A stretch of 64,000 nt of DNA from Eledone cirrhosa (taxonomy: Eukaryota), in the NCBI GenBank assembly GCA_964016885.1, contig OZ024742.1, positions 134,478,001 through 134,542,000 on the forward strand. Reading direction: 5' to 3'. Numbering within the stretch: position 1 is the first letter of the stretch; every line of letters starts with the position of its first letter. A program made the position numbers and the translations under genes. The notes below the pieces were generated by a model. It was given only the letters and a program-made list of their open reading frames with translations, was not told where the DNA came from and made no database searches. Shown piece by piece: positions 1 through 63,640 of the stretch.

Positions 1-2693
1 CTTCTCAACATTCTCTACCAGATATTTTGTTTTAGTCTCATTCATTCTCAGCCCCACACTCATCGACACAGTCTCAACCTCCCGCATCAAATCCTCTGCC
101 TCCTTCACTGTATTTGTCACCCAAAACTATGTCGTCGGCAAATTCAGCATCCGATACCTTTTTCGCCCCAACTCTCCTGCTCTGAGCCGGTGCTACAGTA
201 AAGCCAGTGTCCTGGTGTTTCTCCAGTGCAAGGCGCATACAATAGTCCACTACGATGATAAAAAGGTAGGGAGCCAATGTATCTCCCTGGAGCACTCCAG
301 CCAGTATCGCAAAGAACTGTGTCATCCCATCAGGTGTAATGACTTGGGCTTTGGTGTTGGTGTAGAGCAGTGATATCAGGTCCACTATCCTCTTGGGGAT
401 TCCATAAGCCTGTAAGATCTTCATCAGGCAGTAACGGTCCACAGAATCAAAGGCCTTCCTAAAGTCAATGAAAACCATAACCGCAGGAAGGCACTTTGCT
501 CTAGCTCCCTCTAATATCCTCCTCAGCATCAGGATGTGACTGGTGGTTGATCTACCCTCTCTGAAGCCGTTCTGGTTGTCCCCGAGCTTCTTCTCCATCT
601 CAGGCTGGATCCTGTTAAGAATCATCCTGTTGAGGGTCTTTGCCACAAGTGACGTCAGTGAGATCCCCCGGTAGTTGTTGGTGTTAGAGAGATCTCCCTT
701 CTTTGGCACTGGGACGATGTTACTGATCCTCCACTGATTCAGGGCAACTCCTTTCTCCAGTGCCCCGTTACAGAACCCCAGGATGATATCATCAAAATCA
801 CACCTCTTCATCACATCTGATGCCACTCCATCTTCTCCATGAGCCTTGCCCTCTTTGATCTTCTTCTTGGCTCTCTGAAGCTCCTCTCTGGTGAAGGGCT
901 CTGTCTCAACATCCAGTTCCTCAAACAGCCGCCTGATCTCCCCAGTGCTCTGGGCTGTTGAGGGTGGCTCTCCTAGTAGGGTCCTAAAATGGTCTAGCCA
1001 TTTCCTCTTCCTATCCTCGGGCCCCGTTCCCTGGATCTGACTCGAACACCTTTTCTTCCTCCCTGTGATCTCGTTGATGATCATCCAGCTCTCCTTACAT
1101 CCAGATCTGTCAACCGCTCTCTCCACACTTCTGATCTTCTCTATCAGTGCCTCCTCTCTGACCTCAGTGTAAGCGGTACAGAGCTCTTCCCTCATCACCT
1201 CCACAGTCTCCATCCTCTCCTCCGTAGGATCAGCATAGAATTGGTCCCTGGCAGCTTTCAGGTGTTCTCTGGCTGCACACACTTTTGGGTTTGCGGAGCT
1301 GACGCGCTTCCCTTTGTTCTTTTTCCTCGGCACCAGGGTTTCACTTGCTTTCGCCACTGCATTGGTGAAGTGCCCGTACCTCCTCGTCACACTCTCCTCA
1401 GTCCATCCAATCTCTCTCTCCTCTGACTCTCCACACAGAGCACTAAACCTGTTTCTCACTTCCACTGTGAACCTCTCCTGTAGCTTATCATCTTCCTTGA
1501 AAGCTCGCCAGTCATAGATTGTTCTCCGTGGCTGAGCCTTGCTCTTTCTTAAGCTCACGCGGACCTCACTCATAACAAGCCGGTGGTCACTACCCAGTGT
1601 ACTGAAATAGCTGTATGGTTCCGTGTTCAGAACACTATTCCGCCACTTTTTCCTCACCAGAATGAAATCAATCTGGGACTTGGACAGGTGCATATCTGAG
1701 ATGTAGGTCCACATCTTCCCCAGATTCTTCCTAAACCTTAGGTTGGTCGCCATCAAGTTCGCCTCCAGCAGGGTGTCTCTCAGTAGTCTTCCATTTCGGT
1801 TGGTGTTGTTATGGAAGTACCAGCAAGGATCTTCACTGCCCTCCTTACTCAGATGTGCATTGAAGTCCCCCAAAACAAGCAGGATATTGTGTGCCTGAGT
1901 GGTGTTGACAGCTCTACACACCTCCTCATGGAACTCCTCGGCATTCACATCACTGTCCCCCTCGGTTGGACTATAGGCTGAGATGACTGTCAGTCTTGGG
2001 TTTCCATTGAAGGTCACCCTCAACACTCGCGGGGAGATAGGCATTATTTCCCTCACCAACAGATTGGTTTTTGCACTGAACACAAAACCCACTCCTCCTA
2101 CTGCAGCATTTGTTGTGTTCTTCACTGCCGATGTAGTGATGAGCTGGCTCTTCCTCCCGATCATCACACTCCTCACGGGCTCATCGTGTAGAATCTCGTG
2201 TTCTTGGATCGCAAGTATCTGTATACCACTCTCCTCGAACAGATGTCCCAACTCCTCTCTCTTGTCCAGCGTTCGAATAGTCCTCACATTCAAAGTGCCC
2301 ATTTTGATGGGTCTTCTGCAGGACAAAACTGCATTCTTTATATTTGTCTCAGAGACAGCTGATCCATCATCCACTGGCCCTCTCTGCGGCTCTAAGCCAG
2401 CAGAGTCATAACGACCAGGCTGCTCCTTGACAGTGTAATTAGGGGCTCTAACCCTAGTGCTGTTAGATCGACTCTCCATATTTCTTTTCAATGGCTGACA
2501 ATACCTTACCGGCGACACTCGAATAAGGTAGTTATTTAACCCATAAATGGAGCCCTAACAGGTACTACCACCCCGGGCCAGGGCAGACCTGGGAGTCATG
2601 ACAACTAAGGGGTAACTCCACATTCCCCACATCTCCTGAACTCCCGAACTGGAGCCTTGCCACTGGATGTAGTTTAATGTCATACCCAGGACA
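1..2693 (-). mobile_element. RTE-clade non-LTR retrotransposon (APE endonuclease + RT), runs off the window start
   Basis: ORF 74-2518 has APE motifs (GTLNVRT, IQEH, LGDFNAH, SQIDFIL, GSDH) and RT motifs (NYRGISL, FIDFRKAFDSV, GVLQGDTLAP, FADD). The putative 5' UTR extends to ~2693 and abuts (TA)n. Confidence 0.93.
74..2518 (-). pseudogene. RTE APE-RT ORF with a 1-nt frameshift near position 120
   Basis: gtcacccaaaac here versus gtcaccaaaac in the second copy (~29490), so the reading frame is lost just after FADD. Confidence 0.85.
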
Positions 2694-2745
<52 letters not shown>

Positions 2746-2749
<4 letters not shown>

Positions 2750-3263
2750 GTAATAATAATAAATGTGAAGATTAAAATTCGAAGAGGGCTCGATAAGGAT
2801 AATATATATATCAAATATATACAAAATCATAGACCAAATATTGATTAAAATAACCGATTAATGTTTAAGCAAAGAATCACTGTTTTCACCCTTACCCGGA
2901 TCTTCTGAAACTAAAAAAGAACCATCTGTGGACGCAGAAATAAATATTTCAAAAAAGTTTGCAACTAGAGAAAAACTTTGGTTCGTGAAGACGTTCTCTG
3001 GCAATTGCACGCAAAGACAAAACCAAGTTTATGGTATAAATGGAGTCATTGGAGTAATATTCTATTTAGGAAACAAATATTTCTCAGCTTCGGAGTTAAG
3101 AATAATGTAAATAATTTTGTTTAACGAAAATGAAAGTGTTTATTAAAATCATATGAGCAATATTTACCTCTGCGTCCACAGATTATTTTTTTTTTTGCGG
3201 TTTTTCAGTTTCAGAGGATCCCGTTAAGGGCGAAAGCAGTGATTCTTTGCATAACATTTAATC
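2746..3263. mobile_element. TA-flanked non-coding element with inverted arms (family A)
   Basis: 2856-2948 is the inverted repeat of ~3160-3263. A homologous copy lies at ~31975-32457. HHR-like motifs occur at 2863-2911(-) and 3208-3255(+). Confidence 0.65.
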
Positions 3264-7278: not shown

Positions 7279-7940
7279 GTGTACTCAACCAAACAGAGAT
7301 AGGAAAGACTGTTATTAGGAGCGAAATATCACGATAAATTAACGTTAATTTATCGTGATATTTCGCTCCTAACTCTGTTTGGTTGAGCACACTTCTCTGA
7401 GTGGGTTTGGGCTGCCCTTTCTAGCAGTTCGTCTCTCAGAAGCCACTGGTTCACTGCCCCTGAACACGTTTTGACTTCTCTCTCCCACGTGTAGCTGGAC
7501 AGTCAATTGTAAAATTCTCTTAGTGTTCTCTGAAATGTATGGCCTTACACACGCTGATGAACCGAGACTAGACCATTTCTTTCAACAAAATTTGTTGGTG
7601 AAACATATCTTTGGATTTGTACGTGTGTTATATAGTTATAAAGGTATTTATTTACGCTTTAATTTATATTTTTAATTATCGTGTCTATAGTCTGCCTTTC
7701 ATAGGTTATAGATACCATACACTGGTGGTTTTTTCCCTGTATTATTGATAACGCACTATATATCTCTCTCTGGTGTGTTATTGCATATTGTATTTTAAAG
7801 AGCATATTGTATTTTAAAGAGCTCAGGATATTGTATTTTACAGCATATTGTATTTTAAAGAGCTCAGGATCTCTTCTCCTGTGAGAACACTATTTACAGG
7901 GAATAACGACGGCCTATGCCTCCGTTAATTTATCGTTATA
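7279..7940 (+). mobile_element. Hammerhead element with 5' fold-back cap and short terminal redundancy (family E)
   Basis: 58-bp perfect palindrome at 7315-7372. cgttaatttatcgt occurs at 7343 and again at 7923. The element ends in (TA)n. Confidence 0.75.
7547..7628 (+). ncRNA. Type I hammerhead ribozyme
   Basis: ACACACG-CTGATGA-ACCGA..TTGGT-GAAA-CATATCT-TT-GGATTTG-TA-CGTGTGT: 7-bp stem I, intact core, GUA triplet. Confidence 0.93.
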
Positions 7941-8007
7941 TATATATATATATATATATAGTCCATTTATCGTTTTCGGTGCATCCAGCCGACTGGACTC
8001 ACTCGAT

Positions 8008-8015
8008 ATGCAAAT
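8008..8015 (+). promoter_or_regulatory. Octamer motif ATGCAAAT conserved in family F units
   Basis: Present ~88 nt upstream of the HHR core in all six HHR-bearing units (e.g. 8449, 27727). Confidence 0.35.
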
Positions 8016-8089
8016 TAGGCTGCTAACCCGTTAATATGCATACGGAAAGTATATACTTTCAGACATTCAACCATCTGGCAGGAAGGTAT

Positions 8090-8132
8090 ACGATGCTGAC
8101 GATAGCTAATAAGCTTGAAACTAGTACATCGT
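8090..8132 (+). ncRNA. Minimal type I hammerhead ribozyme (family F)
   Basis: ACGATG-CTGACGA-tAGCT-AATA-AGCTt-GAAA-CTAG-TA-CATCGT: palindromic stem III ACTAGT. Stem I can extend via CAGGA/TCCTG. Confidence 0.92.
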
Positions 8133-8530
8133 TCCTGTGTCATTTTGAACAAAAAGGTGACGTGGTTGCCTAAACACTGTACGGCGTAATTCGAACTATT
8201 TGTTTACAAACAAACAAACCGAGCATTATAATAAATGTTCGGTAAACCGATACGTGCATATATATATGTGCATGTATGTATATATATATACACACTACTG
8301 TACGTCTGTATACTTATAGGTATGTACGTATACATACATACATACTTACAATTAAGTAAGTGCCGTACTAAGAGTGAGAAATGAAATTCCGTTTCATTCT
8401 ATTCCATTTATCGTTTTCGGTGCGCCCAACCGACTGAACTGACTCGATATGCAAATTGGGCTGCTCAGCCGTTATTATGCATAAGGAAAGTATACACTTT
8501 CAGACGTTCAACCCTTTGGCAGGAAGGTAT

Positions 8531-8573
8531 AATATGCTGACGATAGCTAATAAGCTTGAAACTAGTACATCGT
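8531..8573 (+). ncRNA. Hammerhead ribozyme (family F, stem I partly mutated)
   Basis: Intact CTGACGA/GAAA-CTAG-TA core. The 5' strand of stem I reads AATATG. Confidence 0.8.
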
Positions 8574-9769
8574 TCCTGTGTCAGTGTTGAACCAAACGGT
8601 GACGTGGTTGCCTAAACACTGTACGGCGTAATTCAGGCTGTTTGTTTGTAAACAAACAAACAAACCGAGCATAAAAATAAATGTTCGGTAAACCGATAGG
8701 TGCATATATATATGTGTGCATATATGTATATATATACATACTACTGTACCTCTGTATATATATGTATGTACGCATACATGCATACATACTTACATTTAAG
8801 TAAGTGCCGTACTAAGAGTGAGAAATTAAATTTCGTTTCATTCTATTCCATTTATATATATATATGTATATATACGCTCAGGGACTCAATATATATAATA
8901 TATATATATATATATATAAGATTTATGGAGTTGTGCTTGGTTGCACAAAGTTTAGATACGAATACAATTAGTTCTCCATCAGTGATCTTCCAATTTGCAT
9001 TGGTATTTCATCGCTTTAAAAATCATATACCTCTGGTTGGTGCGAGCAATAACAAAATAAAGTTATTCGAACAAGTAAAATAGGGTGAAACGGGCGAGAA
9101 ATGTAAACAAACAACGATGGTAGTGCAACGGAAATATATGAAGAGACAACTACATGATATCTGTAAACTTAAGCTTGGTGAATTCATGGAGGAGAGATAC
9201 AGACCATCCGACATGAGTGAGATGTGAGCGAGAAAAGGGCTTCACACAGGTCAAACGGGAGGAAGTGAGAAAGGGGGAGAAGCAGAGAGTGAGTGAGTGT
9301 AAGTGTAAGGAAGAGGCCAACCGAGAGAGAGAGTGTGACTGGCAGAGGGGTTGAAAGGAAGGTGAAAGATACAGCGAGAGGGCAAGCAGTAAGAAAGAAA
9401 CAGACAATCGCAGCTGAGGAAAAAATATAAATATAAGAACAATGGAGTTTATTCTGTGGTTGCACATGGGTTACATATGAATCAAATTAGTATATATATA
9501 TATGTACTATTACATACGCTGAGGTACTCAAAATCACCCCATATGTATGCACGGGAAATATACTTCCGCCTATCTTGCAGAACATGAAATTATTGTATAG
9601 TGATCATCTATTCGTCTCCGGACATTGATTTATGAAAGCTGAACGCTTTCACGTTTCTATTGACAGTGCAGTGTAAACAAAATCAAGCGAGCTCATATAC
9701 TTCATCAGGATATCACCTTTCATAAAATATACAATTTCTCCTTTGATCTCTACTTTTGAATATATTTAC

Positions 9770-15680: not shown

Positions 15681-16238
15681 TTTTCCTATCTGCTTCGTAG
15701 AATCAAGTCGTATCTGAGGACCTTGCGGTTTTCAGAGTCATGTTGGATCATCACATCGATTGTGCCTCGATTGTAATATGTCCAATAAATCCCATTCGTC
15801 ACAACACTGATTCTCTTGTTTTATGTACACATATATATATATATATGTGTGCGTGTGCCTGTGTCTATATGTGTGTATGTATATGTTTATATGTGTATAT
15901 GAGTGTGTATTTCTGTGCGTGTGTGTGTGTGAGAGTGAGGGCATATGTGTGTGCGAGTGTGATTGTAGGCACCTGGCCATTTCAGCGGAGCTACAAATGA
16001 GTAGCCATTGTTAGCTTAAGTGAACCTCAAACATCAGGAGTGCCCCCCCCCCTCAAGTCTGAACCTGTCGATAGAACTCTTTCTGCCTTTCTTACTCTAA
16101 ATGTAGTTTTTAAAGAATTCCCTTTTCTTTAAATCTATCAAACAATGAGCTCCAACAATCCCAATCACCACACCTCCTACCACTGGAAAAGGTATAAATA
16201 CCACCATATTACTTGGACAGAATATATATATATATATA

Positions 16239-16556
16239 TAGGAAAAGTATGACCACGACGGCAGAGCTCAAGCCGTTTCGACGGCTATTTCTGGACTAAA
16301 TTAGAATTTTTAGCCTGGTGAATAAATACCCGAATTTGACAATTACAATCTTCCCATATAAGGAAGTACCTCCTTGAGAAGTCGGCGATTTGTTGATCAG
16401 GCTTAAAATTCTGATTTAGTCAAGAAATAGCCGTCAAAACGGCTTGCGCTCTGCCGTCGGGGTCATACTTTTTCCTATTTGCCACTCTACTACCCTAGGT
16501 ATTGAGTACTCTGGTGCGTTATGGTCCATCTGGTTCCTTACCACAACTCCTTTGTT
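16239..16556 (+). mobile_element. TA-flanked fold-back element with hammerhead (family I)
   Basis: 16239-16317 is inverted relative to ~16398-16477. A partial copy lies at 16745-16823. Confidence 0.75.
16370..16462 (+). ncRNA. Hammerhead with U3-A8 core, long stem II (G12A in this copy)
   Basis: CTCC-TTGAGAA-GTCGGCGATTT..AAATAGCCGTC-aAAA-CGGC..GCCG-TC-GGGG. The inverted arm and the ~16780 copy retain GTCGAAAC. Confidence 0.7.
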
Positions 16557-16819
16557 ATATATATATATATATTTCGTTTCTGAATTTGTTTAGCAAGATT
16601 ATTTATCTGAAAATTTGAGTTGAAACCGATATTGTTATACTTTGGGAGGGTCATGTTGCCAATAAGAAACACAGGCACCAAATTCCTCACATGTTGCTGT
16701 TCCATTCATGAATGGAACAGCAACATCACAACTTACAACCTCACCAGGCTAAACATTCTAGTTAGTCCAGAAATAGCCGTCGAAACGGCTTGAGCTCTGC
16801 CGTCGGGGTCATACTTTTT

Positions 16820-16939
<120 letters not shown>

Positions 16940-27434: not shown

Positions 27435-27443
27435 GTTGTAATA

Positions 27444-27517
27444 AAATGAAAACGAAATTTCATTTCTCACTCTTAGTACGGCACTTGCGTACATATATGT
27501 ATGTGTACCTGTATGTA

Positions 27518-27593
<76 letters not shown>

Positions 27594-27998
27594 TGCTACT
27601 GTACGTCTGTATACATATATGTATGTACGTATACATACATACTTACATTTAAGTAAGTGCCGTACTAAGAGTGAGAAATGAAATTTCATCGTTTTCGGTC
27701 CGCCTGACCAATTTAACTCACTCGATATGCAAATTAGGCTGCTCATCCGTTAATTCTCATAGGGAAAGTATATACTTTCGAATGTTCAACTATCTGACAG
27801 AAGGGTATACGGTGCTGATGATAGCTAACAATCTTGAAACTAGTACATCGTTCCTGTGTCAGTGTTGAACAAAAAGGTGACGTGGTTGCCTTAACACCGT
27901 GCGGTATAAATTCAGGCTGTTCAGTATACAAACGAACGAAGCGGGCGCTATAATATGCGTCCGCTAAACTGATGCGTACATATATGTAAGTGTACCTG

Positions 27999-28082
<84 letters not shown>

Positions 28083-28135
28083 TGCTACTGTACGTCTGTA
28101 TACATATATGTATGTACGTATACATACATACTTAC

Positions 28136-28140
<5 letters not shown>
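27444..28140 (+). mobile_element. Family F retrozyme locus 2 (>1 unit with inverted 5' cap)
   Basis: 27444-27486 is the reverse complement of the unit end. HHR at 27809-27851 reads ACGGTG-CTGATGA..GAAA-CTAG-TA-CATCGT. Confidence 0.85.
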
Positions 28141-28797: not shown

Positions 28798-31264
28798 ATT
28801 CTAGGACGGTTAAACTTCCCTAGATCCATGGACGAGTTCTCACCAGCGGTCTATGTCCCTCATTATCGCTGCCTTGTCCTGCGTCTCCATCTGACCAGTG
28901 TCTGTCATTAGGGCATCAACATACGTTAACTTAGGTCCTCCTCTTCCAGTGTGTCCATGTAGGGCCTCGCACAGGAGCACTGAGTGCAATGTAAACTCTG
29001 GATATCGGTGAGCATGTCCAGCAAACCTCAGTCTCCTCTGAGTTTTTCATCCTCAGTGTATACTGATTAATGTTCAGAGCCATCCTCAGCATTCTCGTGT
29101 ATCACCCATCCACCAGCTGAGTGAGTTTCTTGGTCAGTGTGTAAATCTCAGACCCGTACAGCAGCACAGACTCCACTATAGCAATGAAGAGGCGGATTTT
29201 GAGGTATTTACGAAGATCCGACTGCCACACCGATCTCAAGTTGTGACACGCCGCCCATGTTTTGTTTTTCCTATAAACCACATCATCTTCCGTATTCCCA
29301 ATCTTTGCTCCCAAATACAGGAAGTTCTCAACCAATTCTAGCGGCTTCCCGCCTACATTAGTGATCCCACCTGGCTTCTCAACATTCTCTACCAGATATT
29401 TTGTTTTAGTCTCATTCATTCTCATCCCCACACTCATCGACACAGTCGCAACCTCCCGCATCAAATCCTCTGCCTCCTTCCCTGTAATTGTCACCAAAAC
29501 TATCTCGTCGGCAAATTCAGCATCCGATATATTTTTCGCCTTAACTATCCTGATCTGAGCCGGTGCTACAGTAAAGCCATAATACTGGTGTTTCTCCAGG
29601 GCAAGGCGCATACGATGATAAATAGGTAGGGCGCCAATGTATCTCCCTAGAGCAATATCTCAAAGAACTCTGTCATCCCATCAGGTGTTATGACTGTAAA
29701 ATCTTCATCAGGCAGTGACGGTCTACAGTATCAAAGGCCTTCCTAAAGTCAATGTAAACCATGACCGCAGGAAGGCACTTTGCTCTAGCTCCCTCTAATA
29801 TCCACTTCAGCATCAGTATGTGACTGGTGGTTGATCTTCCCTCTCTGAAGCCCTTCTGGTTGTCCCTGAGCTTCTTCTCCATCTCAGCATGGATCCTGTT
29901 AAGAATCATCCTGTTGAGGATCTTTGCCACAAGTGACGTCAGTGAGTTCCCCCTATAGTGGTTGGTATTAGAGAGATCTCACTTCTTTGGCACTGGGACG
30001 ATGTTACTGATCCTCCACTGATTTGGGGCAACTCCTTTCTCCAGTGCCCGGTTACAGAACCCCAGGCTGATATCGTCAAAACCACACCTCTTCATCACCT
30101 CTGATGCCACTCCATCTTCTCCATGAGCCTTGCCCTCCTTGATCTTCTTGGCTCTCTGAAGCTCCTCTCTGGTGAAGAGCTCTGTCTCATTGTCCAATTC
30201 TTCGAACAGCCGCCTGATCTCCCCAGTGCGCTGGGCTGTGGAGGACGGCCCTCCTAGTAGTGTCCTCAAATTGTCTAGCCATTTCCTCTTCCCATCCTCG
30301 GGCCCTGTTCCCAAGATCTGACTCGAACACCTTCTCTTCCTCTCTGTGATCTCTTTGATGATCATCCAGCTCTCCTTACATCCAGACCTGTCAACCGCTC
30401 TCTCCCCACTTCTGATCATCTCTATCAGTCCTCCTCTCTGGCCTCAGTGTAAGCGGTACAGAGTTCTTCCCTCATCACTTCCACAGTCTCCATCCTCTCC
30501 TCCGTAGGATCAGCATAGAATTGGTCATTGGCAGCTTTCAGGTGTTCTTTGGCTGCACACACTTTTGGGTGACGTGCTTCCTTTTGTTCTTTCTCCTCGG
30601 CACCAGGGTCTTACTTGCTTCCGCCACTGCATTGGTGAAGTGCCCGTACCTCCTCGTCACACTCTCCTCAGTCCATCCAATCTCTCTCTCCTCTGACTCT
30701 CCACAAAGAGCACTGAACCTGTTACTCACTTGCACTGTGAACCTCTCTAGTAGCTTATCATCTTCCTTGAAAGCTCACAGTCATAGATTCTTCTCCGGGG
30801 CTGAGCCTTGCTCTTTCTTATGCTCACCCGGACCTCACTCATAACAAGCCGGTGATCACTACCCAGTGTACTGAAATAGTTGTATAGTTCTGTGATCAGA
30901 ACACTATTCCGCCACATTTTCCTCACCAGAATGAAATCAATCTGGGACTTGGACAGGTGTATATCTGAGATGTAGTCCACATCTTCCCTGGATTCTTCCT
31001 AAACCTTAGGTTGGTCGCTATTAAGTTCGCCTCCAGTAGGATGTCTCTCAGTAGTCTTCCATTTCGGTTGGTGTTGTTTTGGATGTACCAGCAAGGATCT
31101 TCACTGCCCTCATTACTCAGATGTGCATTGAGTCCCCCAAAACAAGCAGGATGTTGTGTGCTTGTGTGGGATTGACAGCTCTACACACCTCCTCTTCTGC
31201 ACTCACATCACTGTCTCCCTTGATTGGACTATAGGCTGAGATGTCTGTCAGACCTGGGTTTCCG
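28798..31264 (-). mobile_element. Second, degenerate copy of the RTE family at 1-2693 (includes 3' end)
   Basis: High nucleotide similarity to 1-2000, with multiple frameshifts and deletions. 5'-truncated within APE. Confidence 0.93.
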
Positions 31265-31933: not shown

Positions 31934-31974
<41 letters not shown>

Positions 31975-31979
<5 letters not shown>

Positions 31980-32457
31980 TAACAGATTACATTTTAAGCA
32001 AAGAATCGCTGCTTTCACCCTTAACCGGATCTGCTAGAACTAAAAAAATCAATCTGTGAACGCAGAAGTAATTATTTTGAAAAACGTTGCAACCGAAGGA
32101 AGACAGGAAGACGATACATAGGTTCGTGGAAACGTTCCCTGGCAAAAAACGAGAAAAAACGAAGATAATACGTCATTATTTGGAGCTGTGAAGACAATTA
32201 CACGCAAAGACAAAACCACGTTTATGGTATAAATGAAGTCGTAGACTAATATTCTATTAGGTGATTCAGGGAGAAGTTCTCTGGCAATGAACAAAAAAAA
32301 CGAAGATAATACGTCATTATGTGGATCGAGAGAATAATTACACACAAATCACTTATTTTAATAAATATTGCTCTACGAGTCTTATATATTTGATATATAT
32401 TTATCCTGATCGAGCCTTCTTTGGATTTTAGTCTTCAAATGTATTATTATTACTATA
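31975..32457. mobile_element. Family A element, second locus
   Basis: Similar to 2846-3060. Its right end is the reverse complement of 2746-2850. TA-flanked. Confidence 0.7.
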
Positions 32458-39480: not shown

Positions 39481-39504
39481 TGTATTTACGTTTAATATTG
39501 TATT

Positions 39505-39878
39505 ATAATTGTTTCTACTACTGGCCCAAGGCCAGAAATTATCCAGTATATTACTGGTACTTTATTTTATCGACCCTTTAAGGATGAAAGGCAAAGTTAA
39601 CCCCGGCGGGATTTGAACTCAGAAAGGCAAGGGCCGTAAATCTATGCGTCACAGCATGGCGTCCGACCCTCTACCGATACTGCCAATTGTATTATAGTTG
39701 TTTCTACTTTTTGTCACAAGGCCATCAATTATCCCAGTGTATGACGGGTACTTTATTTTATCGACCCCGTAAGGATGAAAGGCAAAGTTAACCTCGGCGG
39801 GATTTGAACTCAGTCCGTAAAGGGACGTAACTGTGCTGCAAAGCATGGCGTCCGACCCTCTACAGATACTGCCAATCC
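39505..39878 (-). mobile_element. Two tandem tRNA-derived SINE copies
   Basis: B-box GAGTTCAAATCCC and shared core ctttgcctttcatcctt..gggtcgataaaataagtacc. Confidence 0.85.
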
Positions 39879-41409
39879 ACCAATTGTATTATAATGTTAG
39901 TATTTGACATGTAATATAAAGTGATGACATGTGTACTTCGGCTTAGAATTGTAAAAGGTTCATATGACACATAAACCAATTATAAAAATACTTACGAGGC
40001 CCAATCACATTTTTCCACGCTTCTGCAGAAATTTGCGTTCGTATTGTTATATCCAAATCTATCTAAACACCATGACACAAATAATGAAGAATCCAATAGG
40101 TAATATTTTGTTTGAATTACTCCCCAGTTGTTAAAAGAATATTCCATATTATTTCCATTTCACTTTGATGTCGCAGGGTCAAACATTATATTTCAGTTCG
40201 TTTCCTGTGAACTGCGGCACATTTTACAACCTGTGCTTGGTCAATCCCCGTGTTTAGTATGCGTAGTAAAATGACCAGGTTTCATTCACAAATTGTATCC
40301 CGGCAGAATGCTTGAAAATATCGAGAGAATTGTGTACATTAAAAATATGTTATCGATCATAATTTTGGGCGTGTTTCTTTTTTTATATATAAGTAATAGA
40401 TTTCGTCAAACATTAGTTTTTACCATTCGATACCACTTTCAACATCTCTTTTAGCATCAATTGCAGCTATACCAGTTAAAAAGTTATAAGTGTTAAAATG
40501 CTTGTGGAAAGCAACAATATGTTTCTATGTTTCGTTCTTATCTTACATAACAGCTGAGATAGATATTTTCGTACAAGAAACAACTATAAATATATTTCTA
40601 TATGTATATACGCTTTAAAGACGTTACTTGAAGTATAATTGAATGAATGCATGAATATTCGGAAGAGTGAAGGAACGAACGAATGAATGAATGAATATAT
40701 GAATGCAATGATGAGTGAATTTATTAAAGAATCAACGAATGAATAACTGAATATATAAATATATGGGTGAATGAATATACGTTTGAATGAATTCTTGAAT
40801 AAATGAATATAGGGATGATGAAAGAATATATGAATTAATAAATGAATATATGTATAAAGGAATACTTGAATTATTAATGTGTTTAGTATGATGTAGTTCA
40901 TGTTTAATAGGGTTTCGGACAGCACGCTGAGGTGTTGAGTATTTACTTTACATTGCCGAATCTATGAAGAAGTCATTTCCCTAGGAATTGCTCCAGTCCA
41001 CCGAACTGGAAACGAAAGCTATACTCTGTTTCAATTTCCAATTCTGTGCAGTTGGAGAACACTATAATTGATGAATAACATCTTGTCTAGCAATATTCAA
41101 TTTCAAATTCTATAACATACATTGCGTAAAATCATATGGACTTACTAGGCCGGCCAAACCTAGTCTATACACCGAGAGCACGAAACTATCTCTCAGATTG
41201 TCATAGGGTTATTTGACTTATAAATGATATATCAACAAAATACATAGTTACTTTTATAAATATTAACAACTGGGCTTGAATTTGAATGTAGCCGATTTCG
41301 AATAAAACAGTGTATGATCAAGTAAATAACAAATCTTTTGAAATGCACGATACATATTCTCGTTAGAAATATTGTTTCTTCTTTTGGAAAAAGGTAAGAA
41401 ATACCTCAG

Positions 41410-41545
41410 TGCATTACTGGTGCTTTATTTTATAGACGCCGTAAGGATGAAAGGCAAAGTTAACCTCGGTGGGATTTGAACTCAGACAGTAAAGGGTTAT
41501 AACTCTATGCTGCTAAGCATGGTGTCTGACACTCTACCGATACTG
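41410..41545 (-). mobile_element. tRNA-derived SINE copy
   Basis: Same core as 39505-39878. Confidence 0.8.
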
Positions 41546-42412: not shown

Positions 42413-43417
<1,005 letters not shown>

Positions 43418-43545
43418 TTCCTCAGCCTAAAACTCCTGGAATTTCAAATTTGCCGGTCACTCGATGCGGGGAGGAGCAACTTAAGAGACACGATTTTTAA
43501 CTACGGTAAGAACATTTTTTTTTCTCATATCAAAGTTTAATGGGC

Positions 43546-43670
43546 TTTCATTGATGATTTATAAGCGCCCACCTAAATATATTCTTACATGAATGTATAT
43601 TAGGCTTCTACATAAACTGGAAATATTCTCCGAATGTGTAGAAAACTTATAATGAAACAATTGTTTGGAA
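43546..43670 (+). ncRNA. Family M hammerhead, unit 1 (C3U)
   Basis: TTTCA-TTGATGA..GAAA-CAATTG-TT-TGGAA. Confidence 0.65.
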
Positions 43671-44542
43671 AGAGAGATATATTTTAACTTTAATTATATC
43701 TCATAAAATAATACAACTGGCTTTTCCACATAATACATATTGTTAGCACCCCAAACACTTAAATTGGGTTTATATTAAAATATAACCTAATGTTTGTTGA
43801 GTGAGATGGTTACCAGTCAGAGATTAGCTTTAAACTATCTCTGTTATTGTATTAATATTTTACTCTTGATTGGCCAGAGGTGTTTATTTCCAGGTACCTT
43901 ATAAATTTGACTTTCCGTATTTATTACTGTTGTGCGATATTATGATTTTTATTGGTTGTAACTTCTCTGTTTTTTAGCCTAAGAAAATATATATATGCCT
44001 ATGTATATGATTACATGCATACATTTATTTTTTTTAATTAATTGAGTTCTTTACACGAGGAATTGATATTAGTTTTGAAATAACTAATTAACCCGCGTGT
44101 GTTTTATATTTTACTCTTAATTCGCCCGGAGATTTACATTCCCATTTGCCCTTTAAAGCATAACTTTCCGTATTTACTACGGTTACGAGATGCGGTTTCT
44201 TATTCAGGTACAACCTCTGATTTAGCCTAAGAAAATATCTATATGCGTGTGTAATTTATACACGCATATATTTATTTTTTTTATTTCAATTGAGTTCTTA
44301 ACACTTTGGATTGATAATGTTTCGAAAAAACTGTTTAACCCGCGTGTATATTACTTTTTTTCCTCCTTTCGTGGATCGTGGTTGTCTCCCCTTGCCGCTT
44401 AGTGACGCTATAATACTTCCTCAGCCAAAAAATGCTGGAATTTCAAATTTGCCGGTCGCTCGATGCAGGGAGGAGCAACTTAACAGACACGATTTTTAAC
44501 TACGGTAAGAAAATATTTTTCTTATATCAAAGTTTAATGGGC

Positions 44543-44667
44543 TTCAACTGATGATTTATAAGCGCTCACCTGAATATATTCTTACATGAATGTATATTAG
44601 GCTTCTACATAAACTGGAAATATTCTCCGAATTTGTAGAAAACTTATAATGAAACAATTGTTTGGAA
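44543..44667 (+). ncRNA. Family M hammerhead, unit 2
   Basis: TTCAA-CTGATGA..GAAA-CAATTG-TT-TGGAA, with one stem I mismatch. Confidence 0.75.
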
Positions 44668-45539
44668 AGAGAGATATATTTTAACTTTAATTATATCTCA
44701 TAAAATAATACAACTGGCTTTTCCACATAATACATATTGTTAGCACCCCAAACACTTAAATTGGGTTTATATTAAAATATAACCTAATGTTTGTTGAGTG
44801 AGATGGTTACCAGTCAGAGATTAGCTTTAAACTATCTCTGTTATTGTATTAATATTTTACTCTTGATTGGCCAGAGGTGTTTATTTCCAGGTACCTTATA
44901 AATTTGACTTTCCGTATTTATTACTGTTGTGCGATATTATGATTTTTATTGGTTGTAACTTCTCTGTTTTTTAGCCTAAGAAAATATATATATGCCTATG
45001 TATATGATTACATGCATACATTTATTTTTTTTAATTAATTGAGCTCTTTACACGAGGAATTGATATTAGTTTTGAAATAACTAATTAACCCGCGTGTGAT
45101 TTATATTTTACTCTTAATGCGCCCGGAGATTTACATTCCCATTTGCCCTTTAAAGCATAACTTTCCGTATTTACTACGGTTACGAGATGCGGTTTCTTAT
45201 TCAGGTACAACCTCTGATTTAGCCTAAGAAAATATCTATATGCGTGTGTATTTTATACACGCATATATTTATTTTTTTAATTTCAATTGAGTTCTTAACA
45301 CTTTGGATTGATAATGTTTCGAAAAAACTGTTTAACCCGCGTGTATATTACTTTTTTTCCTCCTTTCGTGGATCGTGGTTGTCTCCCCTTGCTGCTTAGT
45401 GACGCTATAATACTTCCTCAGCCAAAAAATGCTGGAATTTCAAATTTGCCGGTCGCTCGATGCAGGGAGGAGCAACTTAACAGACACGATTTTTAACTAC
45501 GGTAAGAACATTTTTTTCTTATATCAAAGTTTAATGGGC

Positions 45540-45664
45540 TTCCACTGATGATTTATAAGCGCCCACCTAAATATACTCTTACATGAATGTATATTAGGCT
45601 TCTACATAAACTGGAAATATTCTCCGAATTTGTAGAAAACTTATAATGAAACAATTGTTTGGAA
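45540..45664 (+). ncRNA. Family M hammerhead, unit 3
   Basis: TTCCA-CTGATGA-tTTATAAG..CTTATAAt-GAAA-CAATTG-TT-TGGAA: palindromic stem III ACAATTGT. Confidence 0.85.
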
Positions 45665-46532
45665 AGAGAGATATATTTTAATTTTAATTATATCTCATAC
45701 AACTGGCTTTTCCACATAATACATATTGTTAGCACCCCAAACACTTAAATTGGGTTTATATTAAAATATAACCTAATGTTTGTTGAGTGAGATGGTTACC
45801 AGCCAGAGATTAGCTTTAAACTATCTCTGTTATTGTATTAATATTTTACTCTTGATTGCCCAGAGGTGTTTATTTCCAGTTACCTTATAAATTTGACTTT
45901 CCGTATTGATTACTGTTGTGCGATATTGTGGTTTTTATTGGTTGTAACTTCTCTGTTTTTTAGCCTAAGAAAATATATATATGCCTATGTATATAATTAC
46001 ATGCATACATTTATTTTTTTTAATTAATTGAGATCTTTACACGAGGAATTGATATTAGTTTTGAAATAACTAATTAACCCGCGTGTGTTTTATATTTTAC
46101 TCTTAATTCGCCCGGAGATTTACATTCCCATTTGCCCTTTAAAGCATAACTTTCCGTATTTACTACGGTTACGAGATGCGGTTGCTTATTCAGGTACAAC
46201 CTCTGATTTAGCCTAAGAAAATATCTATATGCGTGTGTAGTTTATACACGCATATATTTATTTTTTTTAATTTCAATTGAGTTCTTAACACCTTGGATTG
46301 ATAATGTTTTCGAAAAAACTGTTTAACCCGCGTGTATATTATTTTTTTTCCTCCTTTCGTTGATCGTGGTTGTCTCCCCTTCCCGCTTAGTGACGCTATA
46401 ATACTTCCTCAGCCAAAAACTGCTGGAATTTCAAATATGCCGGTCACTCGATGCGGGGAGGAGCAACTTAACAGACACGATTTTTAACTACGGTAAGAAC
46501 ATTTTTTTTTCTTATATCAAAGTTTAATGGGC

Positions 46533-46657
46533 TTCCACTGATGATTTTTAGGCGCCCACCTAAATATATTCATATATGAATGTATATTACGCTTCTACAT
46601 AAACTGGAAATATTCTCCGAATTTGTAGAAAACTTATAATGAAACAATTGTTTGGAA
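46533..46657 (+). ncRNA. Family M hammerhead, unit 4
   Basis: TTCCA-CTGATGA..GAAA-CAATTG-TT-TGGAA. Confidence 0.8.
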
Positions 46658-46836
46658 AGAGAGATATATTTTAACTTTAATTATATCTCATAAAATAATA
46701 CAACTGGCTCTTCTAGATAATACATATTGTTAGCACCCCAAACACTTAAATTGGGTTTATATTAAAATATAACCTAATGTTTGTTGGGTGAGATGGTTAC
46801 CAGTCAGAGATTAGCTTTAAACTATCTCTGTTATTG

Positions 46837-46893
<57 letters not shown>

Positions 46894-48723: not shown

Positions 48724-49190
48724 TCGTTTCTGAATTTTTTTAGCAAGATTCTTTGTCTGAAAACGTGTGTTGAAACCGATATTGTTATAATTTGGGAGGG
48801 TCATGTTGCCAATAAGAAACACACGCACCAGTTGCTTTCACTTCAATTTATTATAAATTTAGGAATTTATAAATTTCCGGTTGGTTGGTTGGTTCCACAA
48901 CCAGATGATTGTTCATATATTGTCAAAGTTATTTCGTCGTACATTACGTTAACTCTTCAGTGACTGAGGATTATTTTCTTTGTTTTTGTGCCTCTCCTTT
49001 GTTCTGTACTACGCCATCTTGTTTTGTGTGTTTTGTGTACTTAGTTTGCGCATGTGTTACAAACGGGTGTGTGTGTGTATTTTTATATTTGTTTGTTTAT
49101 TTGTTAATCTACACGTTACTGGTTGGTTTTTTTGTTCTATGTATGTGTGTGTTTTCATTTTGTCCTTAATTGTAAGTTGAGATGTTGCTG
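48724..49190 (-). mobile_element. Family H pLTR copy with hammerhead
   Basis: HHR at 48922-48964(-): GTCA-CTGAAGA-GTT..GAC-GAAA-TAAC-TT-TGAC. Confidence 0.85.
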
Positions 49191-52065: not shown

Positions 52066-52643
52066 CTTGATAGAGCATAAGGCCCCATAATTACACCCCA
52101 TCCCACACACACGCACACGCACACACACACGTATGCACACACATACATGCACACACACACATACACACACACACACACGCTTACATCTCCACTTATTCTC
52201 TCTCCCACACACATACGCACACAAAGACCAGTTCTAAGACGAGAGAGCACCTATCCCCCACATTTACGTATAGACATATCTTCTCACACTCACACACATA
52301 GACACACATACTTACACCTTCACTCATTCTCCCACACACTTAAACATACATGTACAAAACTCCTTTTAAAGGGGGACTACTCTTTATCCACCTAACCATA
52401 ACTCTTTGACATTAGAGATGGAACAGATACTCTATACCATTTCCTGTCAGCATGACTTGGCAAGCTATTTAGAACACTGGTTTAACCGCTTTACTTCCCT
52501 CCGAAGAAGAGATATTATCTCGAAAATTAAGGACATTTAAATACATATAAGGTAAAAGACTAATTGTCAACAATATCTTTTGCATTTGCATTTTTATTCT
52601 TTGTCCATACCTGCATTGTTTTGGGTTTACAAATACAAACGTT

Positions 52644-53586: not shown

Positions 53587-55918
<2,332 letters not shown>

Positions 55919-56364
55919 ATATATATATATATGATATTTCAAAACATGAATCATCGACATCATGATCAGAAATCTCATCAGTATCAATATCATCATCCTC
56001 AGCCACAAGATTATCTTCATCTTCATTGTTATCGTTGTTGTAAGAATCTTCATCGCCATCATCATCATCATCACCACTCTAAACTTCATAATACACTTTA
56101 CCCATTGCATCTTTCATAAATTATTGTTGTCCTTTAGCCGGATGATTTTCATTTGGCCTCCAATCTAATAACACGAAGAATATATAATTTTGAATTCGTC
56201 TCAATTCAAATTCTTTAAGACTTTTCCCGGGGAAGCTATCAAGTAGCTTATCTATTTATGATTTCTCTTTGTGCTTTACATTATAACCGTTCTTCTAGTA
56301 CATCACGAAAAATGCCGCTTCTAACTGAACGCGACCATTGTGTTCTCATTATATTTACGGGTGA

Positions 56365-56545
56365 TTGGCAATATCGATAGAAGGCTGGACGATATGCTTT
56401 GCAGCATAGAGTTATGCCTCTGTATACTCTGAGTTCAAATCCCACCGAGGTTCACTTTGCCTTTCATCCTTACGGGGTTGATAAATAAAGTATCAGTAAT
56501 GTACTGGGATAATTGCTGGCCTTTTGCCAAAAGTAGAAACAATTA
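56365..56545 (+). mobile_element. tRNA-derived SINE copy
   Basis: GAGTTCAAATCCC B-box plus the shared core. Confidence 0.8.
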
Positions 56546-57620
56546 TATTTAATCATGATTAATCCGTACACAACGCCACTAAATAGATGAACCAATGTAC
56601 ATCGATGCAAATAGATATTTAGTCACTTGATGTTCAAATAAAATCTAGGTTGTTTCAATTGCTCGCTGTGCAGCTTGAAAGAGATGGGATTTCAGAAAAA
56701 ATTGTGAAAAAAAACTTTAAGAAAGCAACTTTAATTGAGGTTTTTTTTTTGCCAAATTTTAATTCTCAAGATTGGTTATTTATGAGGTCACTGATTGAAC
56801 GAAATCACTCCTTTCATAAAGTATGGATTGCAGATGAAATATCTTAAGTCGGTTGCAAACATTCATGAATTTGTCATCATATGTCGTATTCAAAGTAATA
56901 ATTTGAAAAATATCCAACACAATGTATGCAAGGTATCCATTTTGTATCAATAAAATTGGAAACATGATGCAGTGTTACCTCTGCCAAATATAGATTATTT
57001 ATTCGTATATACCTACTGCAGTCAGATGATTATTAAGCAGATAACTCCAAAGTTGCTGGAAACCACCGTAATTTGCAATTCCGCTTTATAACTTAATTCT
57101 ATTTATCTACTCAGTAACCACCAGATGAGTTTTCCATATATGCGAAAACATTTTCATTTTTGTTTGTCCTTTAAGAGTAGAAATAGAAAAAAAATAGAAA
57201 AGATATATGAAATACTCAACGAATTTGACTGATTTTCAAATACCTCAATTTGATTCATGTGCTTCCGTTATATCTTATCTATATATTTCTCTATCCACAC
57301 TTACATAATATAATACACTGTCCATACTACTCTACTCCATACCTTAATAATTATTACCATCTCTATATTAAATTCCATCATATAATACAATACTTCTGCT
57401 ATAGTAGTAACTAGTGATTTTAGCACGATTCGTTTTAACAGTATCTTATTTACTAGTATATGCGCTGGAAGAAAGGTCACCTATTTACTGCCGCTTGCAT
57501 GCTCGAGTTATGCTAAGTATTAGGCATTGAGATATTGGGTACCACATTTGTTCCGTACATAAACATGATTATATAATATAATATAATATAATATAATATA
57601 ATATAATATAATATGATATA

Positions 57621-62289: not shown

Positions 62290-63640
62290 TTATTTACTGT
62301 AGAGTCTGATCCGCAAGAGAACAGTCTGGAATTAGAGAAAAACACCATGGAAAGCATCCAGCATATAGCTAACTCCATCCACCAGAGTATTATAGTAACT
62401 ACAGAATACCCAACCAAACACCCCAACCATCGTTTACCTGTACTGGACACAGAGCTCTGGTTAGAAACCATTAATAACAAAAAACAAATCCTCCATTCCC
62501 ATTATGCCAAGCCCATGACTTCCAAATATCTGGACCACACCAAAATCAACATACTGATTGTGGATTTGGTACGGATCCCGCATGTGCAACCCCAAAAAAC
62601 TAGAGAGACACATAGAACACTTCATCCACCGTATGCATTTCTCTGGTTACAATCAGAGACATAAAATCAGAGTATATAGAGGAGCCAGAACCAAATAGGA
62701 AAAAATGGTAAATAATGATACAAATGGGATCTGCCCATTGTATAGGAGCAAATTTTGGAATAGAATAGAAAGAACTAGGAATAACGTTAATAGAATAAAC
62801 TCATGGTATGATAGCAATAAATACCAGAGTGTAATGTTAATCAATACAACCCCTACAAGGGCCCTAGATAAACTAAACTCAATATTAAGATAGTAGAAAG
62901 ACCAGGTCCCTCCATAAAAACACTTATTAGCAATACATACCCTTTTCAAAGACCTCCCTCTATAGATAAGAAATGTATAATATGTAATCTAAGCCCCCAT
63001 ATTAACTGTAAAACTAGAAATGTAGTATATAGCATAATATGTACTGAAGGACAATGTAGAGATAATAAAATAGTGTACATAGGTGCAACAGCTCGTAGTA
63101 TAGAATCATCTGTACTCCACCAACATGCTAAAATAGAACATAAGGGTAAATTAGAGAACATAGAAATGAAAATAGAATCTACACACAGAAAAGACGGAAT
63201 GTTTAGACAAATCAGAGAGGTAATAAACATAAATGAACTCCAACCAAAATTAAAAATTACAATTAAATAGAAAACATGAATGGAATAGGAACATCGCAAC
63301 TTACAATTAAGGACAAAATGAAAACACACACACACATAGAACAAACAACCAACCAGTAACATGTAAATAACTAAGCACACAATACACAAAAACAAGATGG
63401 CGTAGGACAGAACAAAGTAGAGGCACAAAAACAAAGAAAATAATCCCCAGTCACTGAAGAGGTCACATAATGTGTGACGAAAGAACTTTGACAATACATG
63501 AACAATCGTCCGGTTGTGCACCCAACCAACCAACCGGAAATGTATAAATTCTTAAATTTATAAATTTAATTTATAATAAATTGGAGTGAAAGCAACTGGT
63601 TCGTGTGTTTCTTATTGGCAATATGACCCTAGCATAACAA
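62290..63640 (+). mobile_element. Penelope-like element 3' part (RT C-terminus, GIY-YIG, pLTR, family H)
   Basis: RLPVLDTELW..HYAKP and VVYSI..YIGATARS. HHR at 63450-63492: GTCA-CTGAAGA-g-GTCACA..TGTGAC-GAAA-GAAC-TT-TGAC. Confidence 0.88.

Follow-up and report, generated by a model that had tools for sequence, protein, structure and literature searches.

The 441-bp hammerhead repeat found at three loci of the 64-kb window (the whole stretch of DNA analysed), here called family F, is probably a non-autonomous, non-LTR retrozyme that depends on the enzyme of a Penelope-like element (PLE), acting in trans, to reverse-transcribe its RNA into (TA)n runs. Its insertions carry the PLE 'tail' signature, a footprint that was missing from the original prediction and is the most informative feature of the family. 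The proposal of a high-copy non-LTR retrozyme was backed by copy number, by anatomy and by selection on the ribozyme in source lineages.

The three loci and their six type I hammerhead cores were re-found (Table 1). The expected cut after the GUA at 8126, the 441-nt monomer and the palindromic stem III matched the predicted positions. The two units of locus A are 89.8% alike; this locus belongs to an old subfamily, and its 3′ end is site E2 (see below), continuing into TA. Locus B, described as more than one unit at 27444-28140, does hold 1.3 sense units, but part of it is inverted. The ~3.2 units assigned to locus C are three sense units, and the remainder is an inverted arm. The claim that all six cores are intact was right for the 11 core bases, kept in 6/6 copies, but not for the stems: mismatches occur in stem II of the copies with cores at 27815 and 54752. 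In proximal stem I they occur in the copies at 8537, where private changes weaken the stem, and 54309. An Rfam scan at gathering thresholds gave no match in the window, hammerheads included. The only frames of ≥120 aa overlapping the window loci were of low complexity. Family F is non-coding, has no LTR architecture and has a GC content below 50% (unit GC 0.35-0.38).

Table 1. Features of family F in the window (positions read from the sequence; cuts and ribozyme activity are predicted)
Feature	Position	Strand	Details
(TA)12 target run	7937..7960	.	left of locus A
Locus A	7962..8854	+	two head-to-tail sense units, 7962-8403 and 8403-8854; no inverted arm
Hammerhead 1, type I	8090..8132	+	predicted cut after 8126
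Hammerhead 1, proximal stem I	8090-8095/8127-8132	+	
Hammerhead 1, CUGACGA	8096-8102	+	core start 8096; U.U at stem II base
Hammerhead 1, stem II	8104-8107/8112-8115	+	GAAA at 8117-8120
Hammerhead 1, palindromic stem III ACTAGT	8120-8125	+	triplet GUA at 8124-8126
Hammerhead 2, type I	8531..8573	+	core start 8537; predicted cut after 8567
Cut-to-cut monomer, 441 nt	8127..8567	+	predicted; candidate circular RNA, predicted highly self-paired
56-nt 'tail'	8799..8854	+	bounded by the fixed 3′ ends E1 (8798) and E2 (8854), unit 2
Locus B, inverted arm	27437..27593	-	outer end = E2
Locus B, sense arm	27559..28140	+	1.3 units; core start 27815; 3′ end = E1, into (TA)29
Locus C, inverted arm	53660..53741	-	outer end = E1, adjoining (TA)31
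Locus C, sense units	53742..55071	+	three; core starts 53858, 54309, 54752; 3′ end = E2
Locus C, predicted cuts	after 53888, 54339, 54782	+	

The hammerhead had been called minimal, which is the wrong class. Its helix I of ~6 bp, helix II of 4 bp and helix III of 1-2 bp are those of the canonical metazoan type I hammerhead, which in the accessible text of PMC4209133 has the same helix lengths and a palindromic loop on helix III. The min-HHR of PLEs lacks helix III and has a helix II of 7-8 bp (same text); with a helix III and a helix II of 4 bp, family F falls outside that class. In 80 aligned copies (55 distinct rows, mostly selected by their core), the canonical helices were paired in 97-99% of cells, and stem I contained a single pair changed on both sides. 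A conserved bulge and a 4-nt loop exist, candidates for the tertiary contact of loop/bulge 1 with loop 2 that belongs to this type. Stem I does extend past the bulge, but in another register than had been proposed. Common subfamily variants disrupt the CAGGA/TCCTG pairing, in which 84.6% of cells are paired and two pairs are open in 19 and 21 of the 55 distinct rows, whereas a shifted register holds, with 94.2% and 96.9% paired.

In folding models, the dimeric hammerhead fold was favoured over two monomeric folds by 7.5-16 kcal/mol for 6/6 adjacent pairs. The active dimer fold lay 3.7-10.2 kcal/mol above the inactive minimum-energy fold, with a pair probability of 0 in 5/6. Cleavage of family F RNA as a dimer is thus a prediction of these models. 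Monomers were predicted to fold far better than shuffled sequences, with z scores of -4.6 (linear) and -4.9 to -11.0 (circular; 5/5 monomers, 25 shuffles each) that are partly inflated by the internal TA block of the unit. Two long-range helices around E1 and E2 were 95.8% paired in 31 monomers, as opposed to 25-47% when slid, and had three doubly changed pairs. Changes in them are compensated between subfamilies, a covariation that reflects few lineage events in helices read from the same sequences.

The proposed count of genome copies gave 28,554 matches to a looser core pattern and 5 to its reversed control; the family F core is therefore not a chance pattern. There were 3,761 matches to the exact 35-nt core, 6,837 to an upstream motif and 13,529 to the exact tail motif, evenly divided between the strands of the 3.0-Gb genome. 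At 440 bp for each of the 28,554 cores, family F would make up at least ~13 Mb of probably unclassified repeat. Units are 420-516 nt long (40 monomers), with one type I hammerhead per head-to-tail unit, and 3,035 adjacent core pairs were counted at a gap of 395-425 bases alone. A tree of 119 units had an older star-like group, to which locus A and locus C of the window belong, alongside two younger lineages, of ~422 and 466-502 bp, whose units are up to 100% identical between loci. The family includes recently active subfamilies. The window is part of contig C3, whereas most sampled loci come from the first 60 Mb of contig C1. Three contig runs over 7700-9100 behaved as genomic repeat collections and were uninformative on expression.

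We mapped the ends of 126 distinct complete insertions from 295 fetched loci and the window. Outer 3′ ends fell at two sites 56 nt apart, E1 (72) and E2 (92), in 164 of 188 cases; the other 24 were elsewhere, none of them at the ribozyme cut site, which lies 230-290 nt upstream of E1 and E2. The 5′ ends were scattered over the unit, as expected of 5′ truncation, with 2/188 at the cut site; a peak of 5′ ends at the unit start was an artefact of the query edge. Most insertions were short (median about 1.8 units). A (TA)3+ run adjoined 155/164 fixed ends but only 12-19% of random 32-mers, and the ends sit in (TA)n, where a target-site duplication, longer than 4 bp in non-LTR retrozymes that have one, would be unreadable. 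An inverted arm was present in 62 of the 126 insertions. When both ends were at fixed sites (n=48), 46 insertions combined E1 with E2 and 2 combined E2 with E2 (binomial p=4e-12), a pairing rule that window loci B and C obey.

According to the accessible part of PMC8557442, PLE insertions show 5′ truncation, an inverted 5′ copy and a tail at one end only, and Hydra elements target (TA)n. PLEs alone have such a tail, which is the sequence separating two internal start sites of reverse transcription (PMC11167929). The footprint of family F insertions is this signature, and E1 and E2 would be the start sites. A PLE endonuclease may cut both strands of a (TA)n run, after which each DNA end would prime reverse transcription at E1 or E2, a mechanism modelled on the genomic pattern above. 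This would produce a sense arm, in many cases accompanied by an inverted one, with random 5′ truncation of both; one arm would carry the tail and the other lack it.

The structure of the arrays was compared for 57 monomers from 30 arrays. In six young arrays, units differed by 0-3 bases within an array versus 3-15 bases from the nearest other array. Alleles both fixed in and private to an array were found in 7/14 multi-unit arrays. In six of the 14 (L007, L129, L202, L207, L211 and window locus C), which are older or mixed, units differed from one another as much as from those of the nearest other array. The young arrays point to one template copied repeatedly and fit rolling-circle reverse transcription; repeated copying of one template was proposed for PLEs in 2014 (PMC4209133, accessible text). 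Insertions of 8-10 units were found at L102, L105, L284 and L285, the last a 9-unit two-armed insertion without shared variant columns. Units of two kinds, A and B, alternate in L102, L129 and L284; in two of these three arrays one ribozyme carries a stem lesion, and L284 also has mosaic units. A dimeric circle as template would fit the A/B arrays, and local duplication is possible.

Family F might alternatively be a satellite spread at the DNA level, by unequal crossing-over or extrachromosomal circles, with the hammerhead as an inherited relic. Some loci did grow locally into long heterogeneous arrays with higher-order duplications (L205/L247 at C1 53.35-53.37 Mb, with 21 units in L205 alone, and C1 51.77-51.79 Mb). 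These arrays possibly represent the birth of a satellite from a retrozyme insertion, and the A/B alternation in L129 and L284 could be duplication of a local dimer. Satellites of that kind do not show 3′ ends at fixed sites with 5′ ends at random, nor inverted arms, insertion into TA, dispersal without strand bias or a ribozyme kept by lineages. As the main route it is largely refuted by the end mapping, and we consider this explanation very improbable.

Since the 3′ ends lie away from the cut site, the template of a reverse-transcribed insertion spans the cut, as a circle, as an uncleaved multimer or through jumps. We lean towards a circular RNA step in the family F cycle. A tandem locus would be transcribed, and adjacent hammerheads would pair through the ACUAGU palindrome and cut after GUA. 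The unit-length RNA released would then be circularised by a host ligase. The enzyme would circle this template, or copy one molecule again, to produce 1-10 near-identical units, and some templates look dimeric. We propose more tentatively, as a reading whose truth we regard as somewhat doubtful, that the insertions are a direct record of rolling-circle, twin-primed retrotransposition. A dimer of a Hydra-clade PLE protein would prime at both ends of a cut (TA)n run, using two fixed positions on one ribozyme-made circle, and copy that circle for up to ten rounds, the circles being monomeric or sometimes dimeric (A/B arrays with a stem lesion in one of their two ribozymes), and the autonomous 3.5-kb element H2 (see below) would do likewise on its own RNA.

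The same PLE-driven insertion could start from linear RNA, with no circle, if uncleaved multimers were used or cleaved monomers were re-copied by template jumps, and the hammerhead were kept for 5′ processing, stability or RNP folding. The one PLE studied in vitro, Poseidon, did not need hammerhead cleavage: it mainly used uncleaved RNA, hammerhead mutants still inserted, and the cut site was not the end of any read (PMC11167929). Only one of nine predicted Xenopus retrozyme dimers was cleaved (bioRxiv 10.64898/2026.07.22.740005). The shortness of most insertions (again, a median of about 1.8 units) and the near absence of ends at the cut site (0/188 3′ ends, 2/188 5′ ends) agree with linear templates, and identical DNA would result if the enzyme jumped between the cleaved ends of one molecule, from 5′ to 3′. 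However, each round on a linear template would lose sequence, yet lineages went on producing insertions of 8-10 units, as at the four loci above, and private alleles of whole arrays, inverted arm included, would need a one-unit bottleneck followed by re-multimerisation. We regard insertion from linear RNA alone as unlikely.

The intact cores and drifting flanks noted in the six window copies do not show that these copies are under selection. We tested conservation in units located by motifs that lie outside the ribozyme; of 90 candidates, 49 spanned the ribozyme, and 42 remained after removal of duplicates. In these 42 units, private changes were not rarer in the core (7/458) than in the rest (117/7265), and the core was intact in 37/42. 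In contrast, variants shared by a lineage (≥3 copies) were found in 0/23 columns of the core, stem II and stem III versus 48/186 other columns (Fisher test, p=0.0017, with columns that are not mutually independent). Inserted copies decay neutrally, whereas source lineages retain the ribozyme and the long-range helices. Because lineage-shared changes avoid the ribozyme, the propagating masters likely need it.

PLE families are numerous in this genome. Among them are two of Hydra type, H1 (709 aa) and H2 (717 aa, counted from the first ATG), whose translations show RW, DKT, CxCX5C, CxxC and CxH motifs. Searches of Pfam and PDB with H1 and H2 gave no match; a PLE with GIY-YIG was matched weakly (E 2e-6), over both the reverse transcriptase and the endonuclease, and the best named of 2,049 homologues was from a mollusc. 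By these motifs, this match and these homologues, they are putative PLEs. Both insert in the manner of family F, with two end sites in (TA)n and a tail of about 90 nt (H1) or 82 nt (H2). H2 is young and often intact and forms full-length 3.53-kb head-to-tail arrays. Among 8 of its units from 3 arrays, differences numbered 0-7 bases inside an array and 26-33 from one array to another. Where inverted insertions of H2 were seen at both ends, the arms used opposite end sites (4/4).

H2, represented at L243:3765-7295 (G000 C1 ~437.2 Mb; protein at L243:3957-6107), has inverted arms on its arrays and a variant hammerhead-like motif just upstream of its first end site; H2 fragments lie in the window at 16238-16824. 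H1, represented at L139 and by window fragments at 31972-32456 and 2747-3004, is very numerous, with 85,977 first-look candidates, and in its hammerhead-like motif A replaces U4.

The likeliest mobilising enzyme of family F is that of a Hydra-clade PLE, family H2, an assignment that we see as evenly balanced. At L003/L193 family F is joined directly, with no TA in between, to a near-full H2-type copy; at L118 its inverted arm continues, likewise directly, into the last 45 nt of H2. A third direct join (L020/L274) is to a Neptune-type family. The L118-type junction pattern had a single match genome-wide, and family F was found in 3/30 H1 loci and 0/38 other H2 loci. Direct joins could have been made by later deletions. 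The Neptune-type join, the unique L118 junction and the 0/38 H2 loci speak against a single PLE partner.

Other associations were discounted. Where family F abuts H1, H2 or Neptune-type ends across TA, the elements have only a common target and are not chimeras. The likeness of the unit start to the 5′ end of H1 was no better than that of shuffles (90/300, 25/300, 216/300). The PLE ORF beside the repeat in L022-L024/L126 is that of a host element in which family F was inserted antisense. In L126:4500-7200, a family F dimer lies antisense in a Hydra-type PLE ORF and the composite recurs as an inverted arm, which suggests that the disrupted PLE later moved in trans.

No significant sequence in common was found between family F and an autonomous PLE among the GIY-YIG loci, H1, H2 and about 20 further Hydra-type 3′ regions, and no ORF for reverse transcriptase with GIY-YIG was found in or joined to the unit at the loci examined. 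Known non-autonomous PLEs usually have 3′ sequence in common with their partner, as stated in the part of PMC8557442 available to us. The family F unit might itself be the pseudo-LTR of an autonomous PLE, its copies being 5′-truncated cis products and tandem pLTRs. The whole footprint is compatible with this origin, and Xenopus retrozymes match pLTRs (bioRxiv 10.64898/2026.07.22.740005). The PLE survey, moreover, covered best-scoring candidates only, from about 11 library families and the about 20 Hydra-type 3′ regions. However, the unit runs seamlessly into itself, and 0/126 insertions extend 5′ into a common ORF-bearing body. The family F hammerhead is canonical, whereas those beside PLE ORFs here are minimal or variant, and unit lengths and compensated helices have evolved separately in the subfamilies. 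We think a pseudo-LTR origin quite improbable.

On all features testable from sequence, family F is a non-LTR retrozyme, likely moved by a PLE in trans; having no ORF, it is not an autonomous PLE, yet it has the PLE integration signature. Animal non-LTR retrozymes of coral, mussel and axolotl (Cervera & de la Pena 2020, PMC7229834, in the sections available) are likewise tandem non-coding repeats of 150-450 bp with one type I hammerhead each, GC below 50%, thousands of copies and self-paired RNA. Family F has a weak palindromic helix III like axolotl Amex1 and a U.U at the base of helix II like Amex2, and axolotl retrozymes cleave better as dimers (same sections). Its unit of 420-516 nt is at the top of the size range given there. 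A tail, an inverted arm and a TA target are not described for retrozymes in the results and discussion of that paper, and the review PMC7761336 notes, in its accessible part, that nothing in retrozyme repeats points to the element that mobilises them.

Li, Clavereau & Pollet (bioRxiv 10.64898/2026.07.22.740005) reached the same conclusion, that PLE machinery moves tandem hammerhead repeats. Their evidence was co-occurrence and pLTR homology in vertebrates, with no mollusc, and the terms 'tail' and 'target site' are absent from their text. For family F no homologous pLTR was found among the PLEs surveyed, but an insertion footprint was. Its head-to-tail arrays, 5′ truncation, inverted 5′ copy, one-end tail and (TA)n target are those of Hydra-clade PLEs, Chlamys MRC1 (PMC8557442) and Poseidon PAc (PMC11167929), as far as the accessible text of these reports goes, and Hydra/Naiad PLEs have the same (TA)n target. 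It differs from those PLEs in having no ORF, a tail of 56 nt rather than 30-40 nt, a canonical hammerhead and no common 3′ sequence with the autonomous families tested.

The retrozyme class and the link to PLEs are thus already in print, and family F is a further member. The footprint evidence and the lineage-level test of selection were not found in the literature searched, which comprised main texts without supplements. No report of a cephalopod retrozyme was found in the literature searched; supplements may list further species. The repeat annotation of Octopus vulgaris (PMC13282606) does not mention ribozymes in its accessible part.

The mover of animal retrozymes and the use of circular RNA as template are both still hypotheses in the available parts of PMC7229834, PMC7761336 and PMC4209133. 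Family F offers unusually clear evidence on the mover, as a PLE-specific tail signature in a ribozyme-only repeat. Its ribozyme is under selection in propagating lineages and not in inserted copies, and the same genome has a very young, intact PLE of like architecture. Together, the tail signature, the lineage selection and the young intact PLE make the questions of the mover and the circular template testable in vitro. If the rolling-circle reading is true, the intact young enzyme, the 440-nt substrate and the mapped start sites would form a complete kit for demonstrating PLE and retrozyme transposition via circular RNA.

Further hammerheads and PLEs were noted in the window and at the fetched loci. 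A near-full-length broken PLE at window 49394-52662 matches RVT_1 and GIY-YIG; near 52490 it contains a degenerate motif resembling a hammerhead. Hammerhead-like motifs of a second family, which has a long helix II, are found at window 63454 (+), downstream of a GIY-YIG fragment (62872-63270), and at 48960 (-); the copies of this family are probably PLE pseudo-LTRs that end in TA. A further type I hammerhead, canonical in appearance, lies beside Neptune-type PLEs (L053:25, L082:1374, L085:1358). Tandem pairs of 450-460 bp near PLE ORFs (L075:6510-7419, L076:5478-6445) may be further retrozyme families. A TA-flanked repeat at L083:6056-6233 is weakly similar to the family F tail region (69% over 126 nt) and is a possible distant relative.

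The window also contains other repeats. A LINE at 74-2554 (-), which we take to be RTE-like, has an open endonuclease-reverse transcriptase frame of 826 aa, and a second, more broken copy lies at 29375-31263. SINE copies at 39497-39876, 41371-41545 and 56363-56547, one of them a tandem dimer, presumably resemble the tRNA-derived SINEs of octopus. An about 1-kb tandem repeat at 43409-46845, with units 96% alike, has internal subrepeats of ~250 bp.
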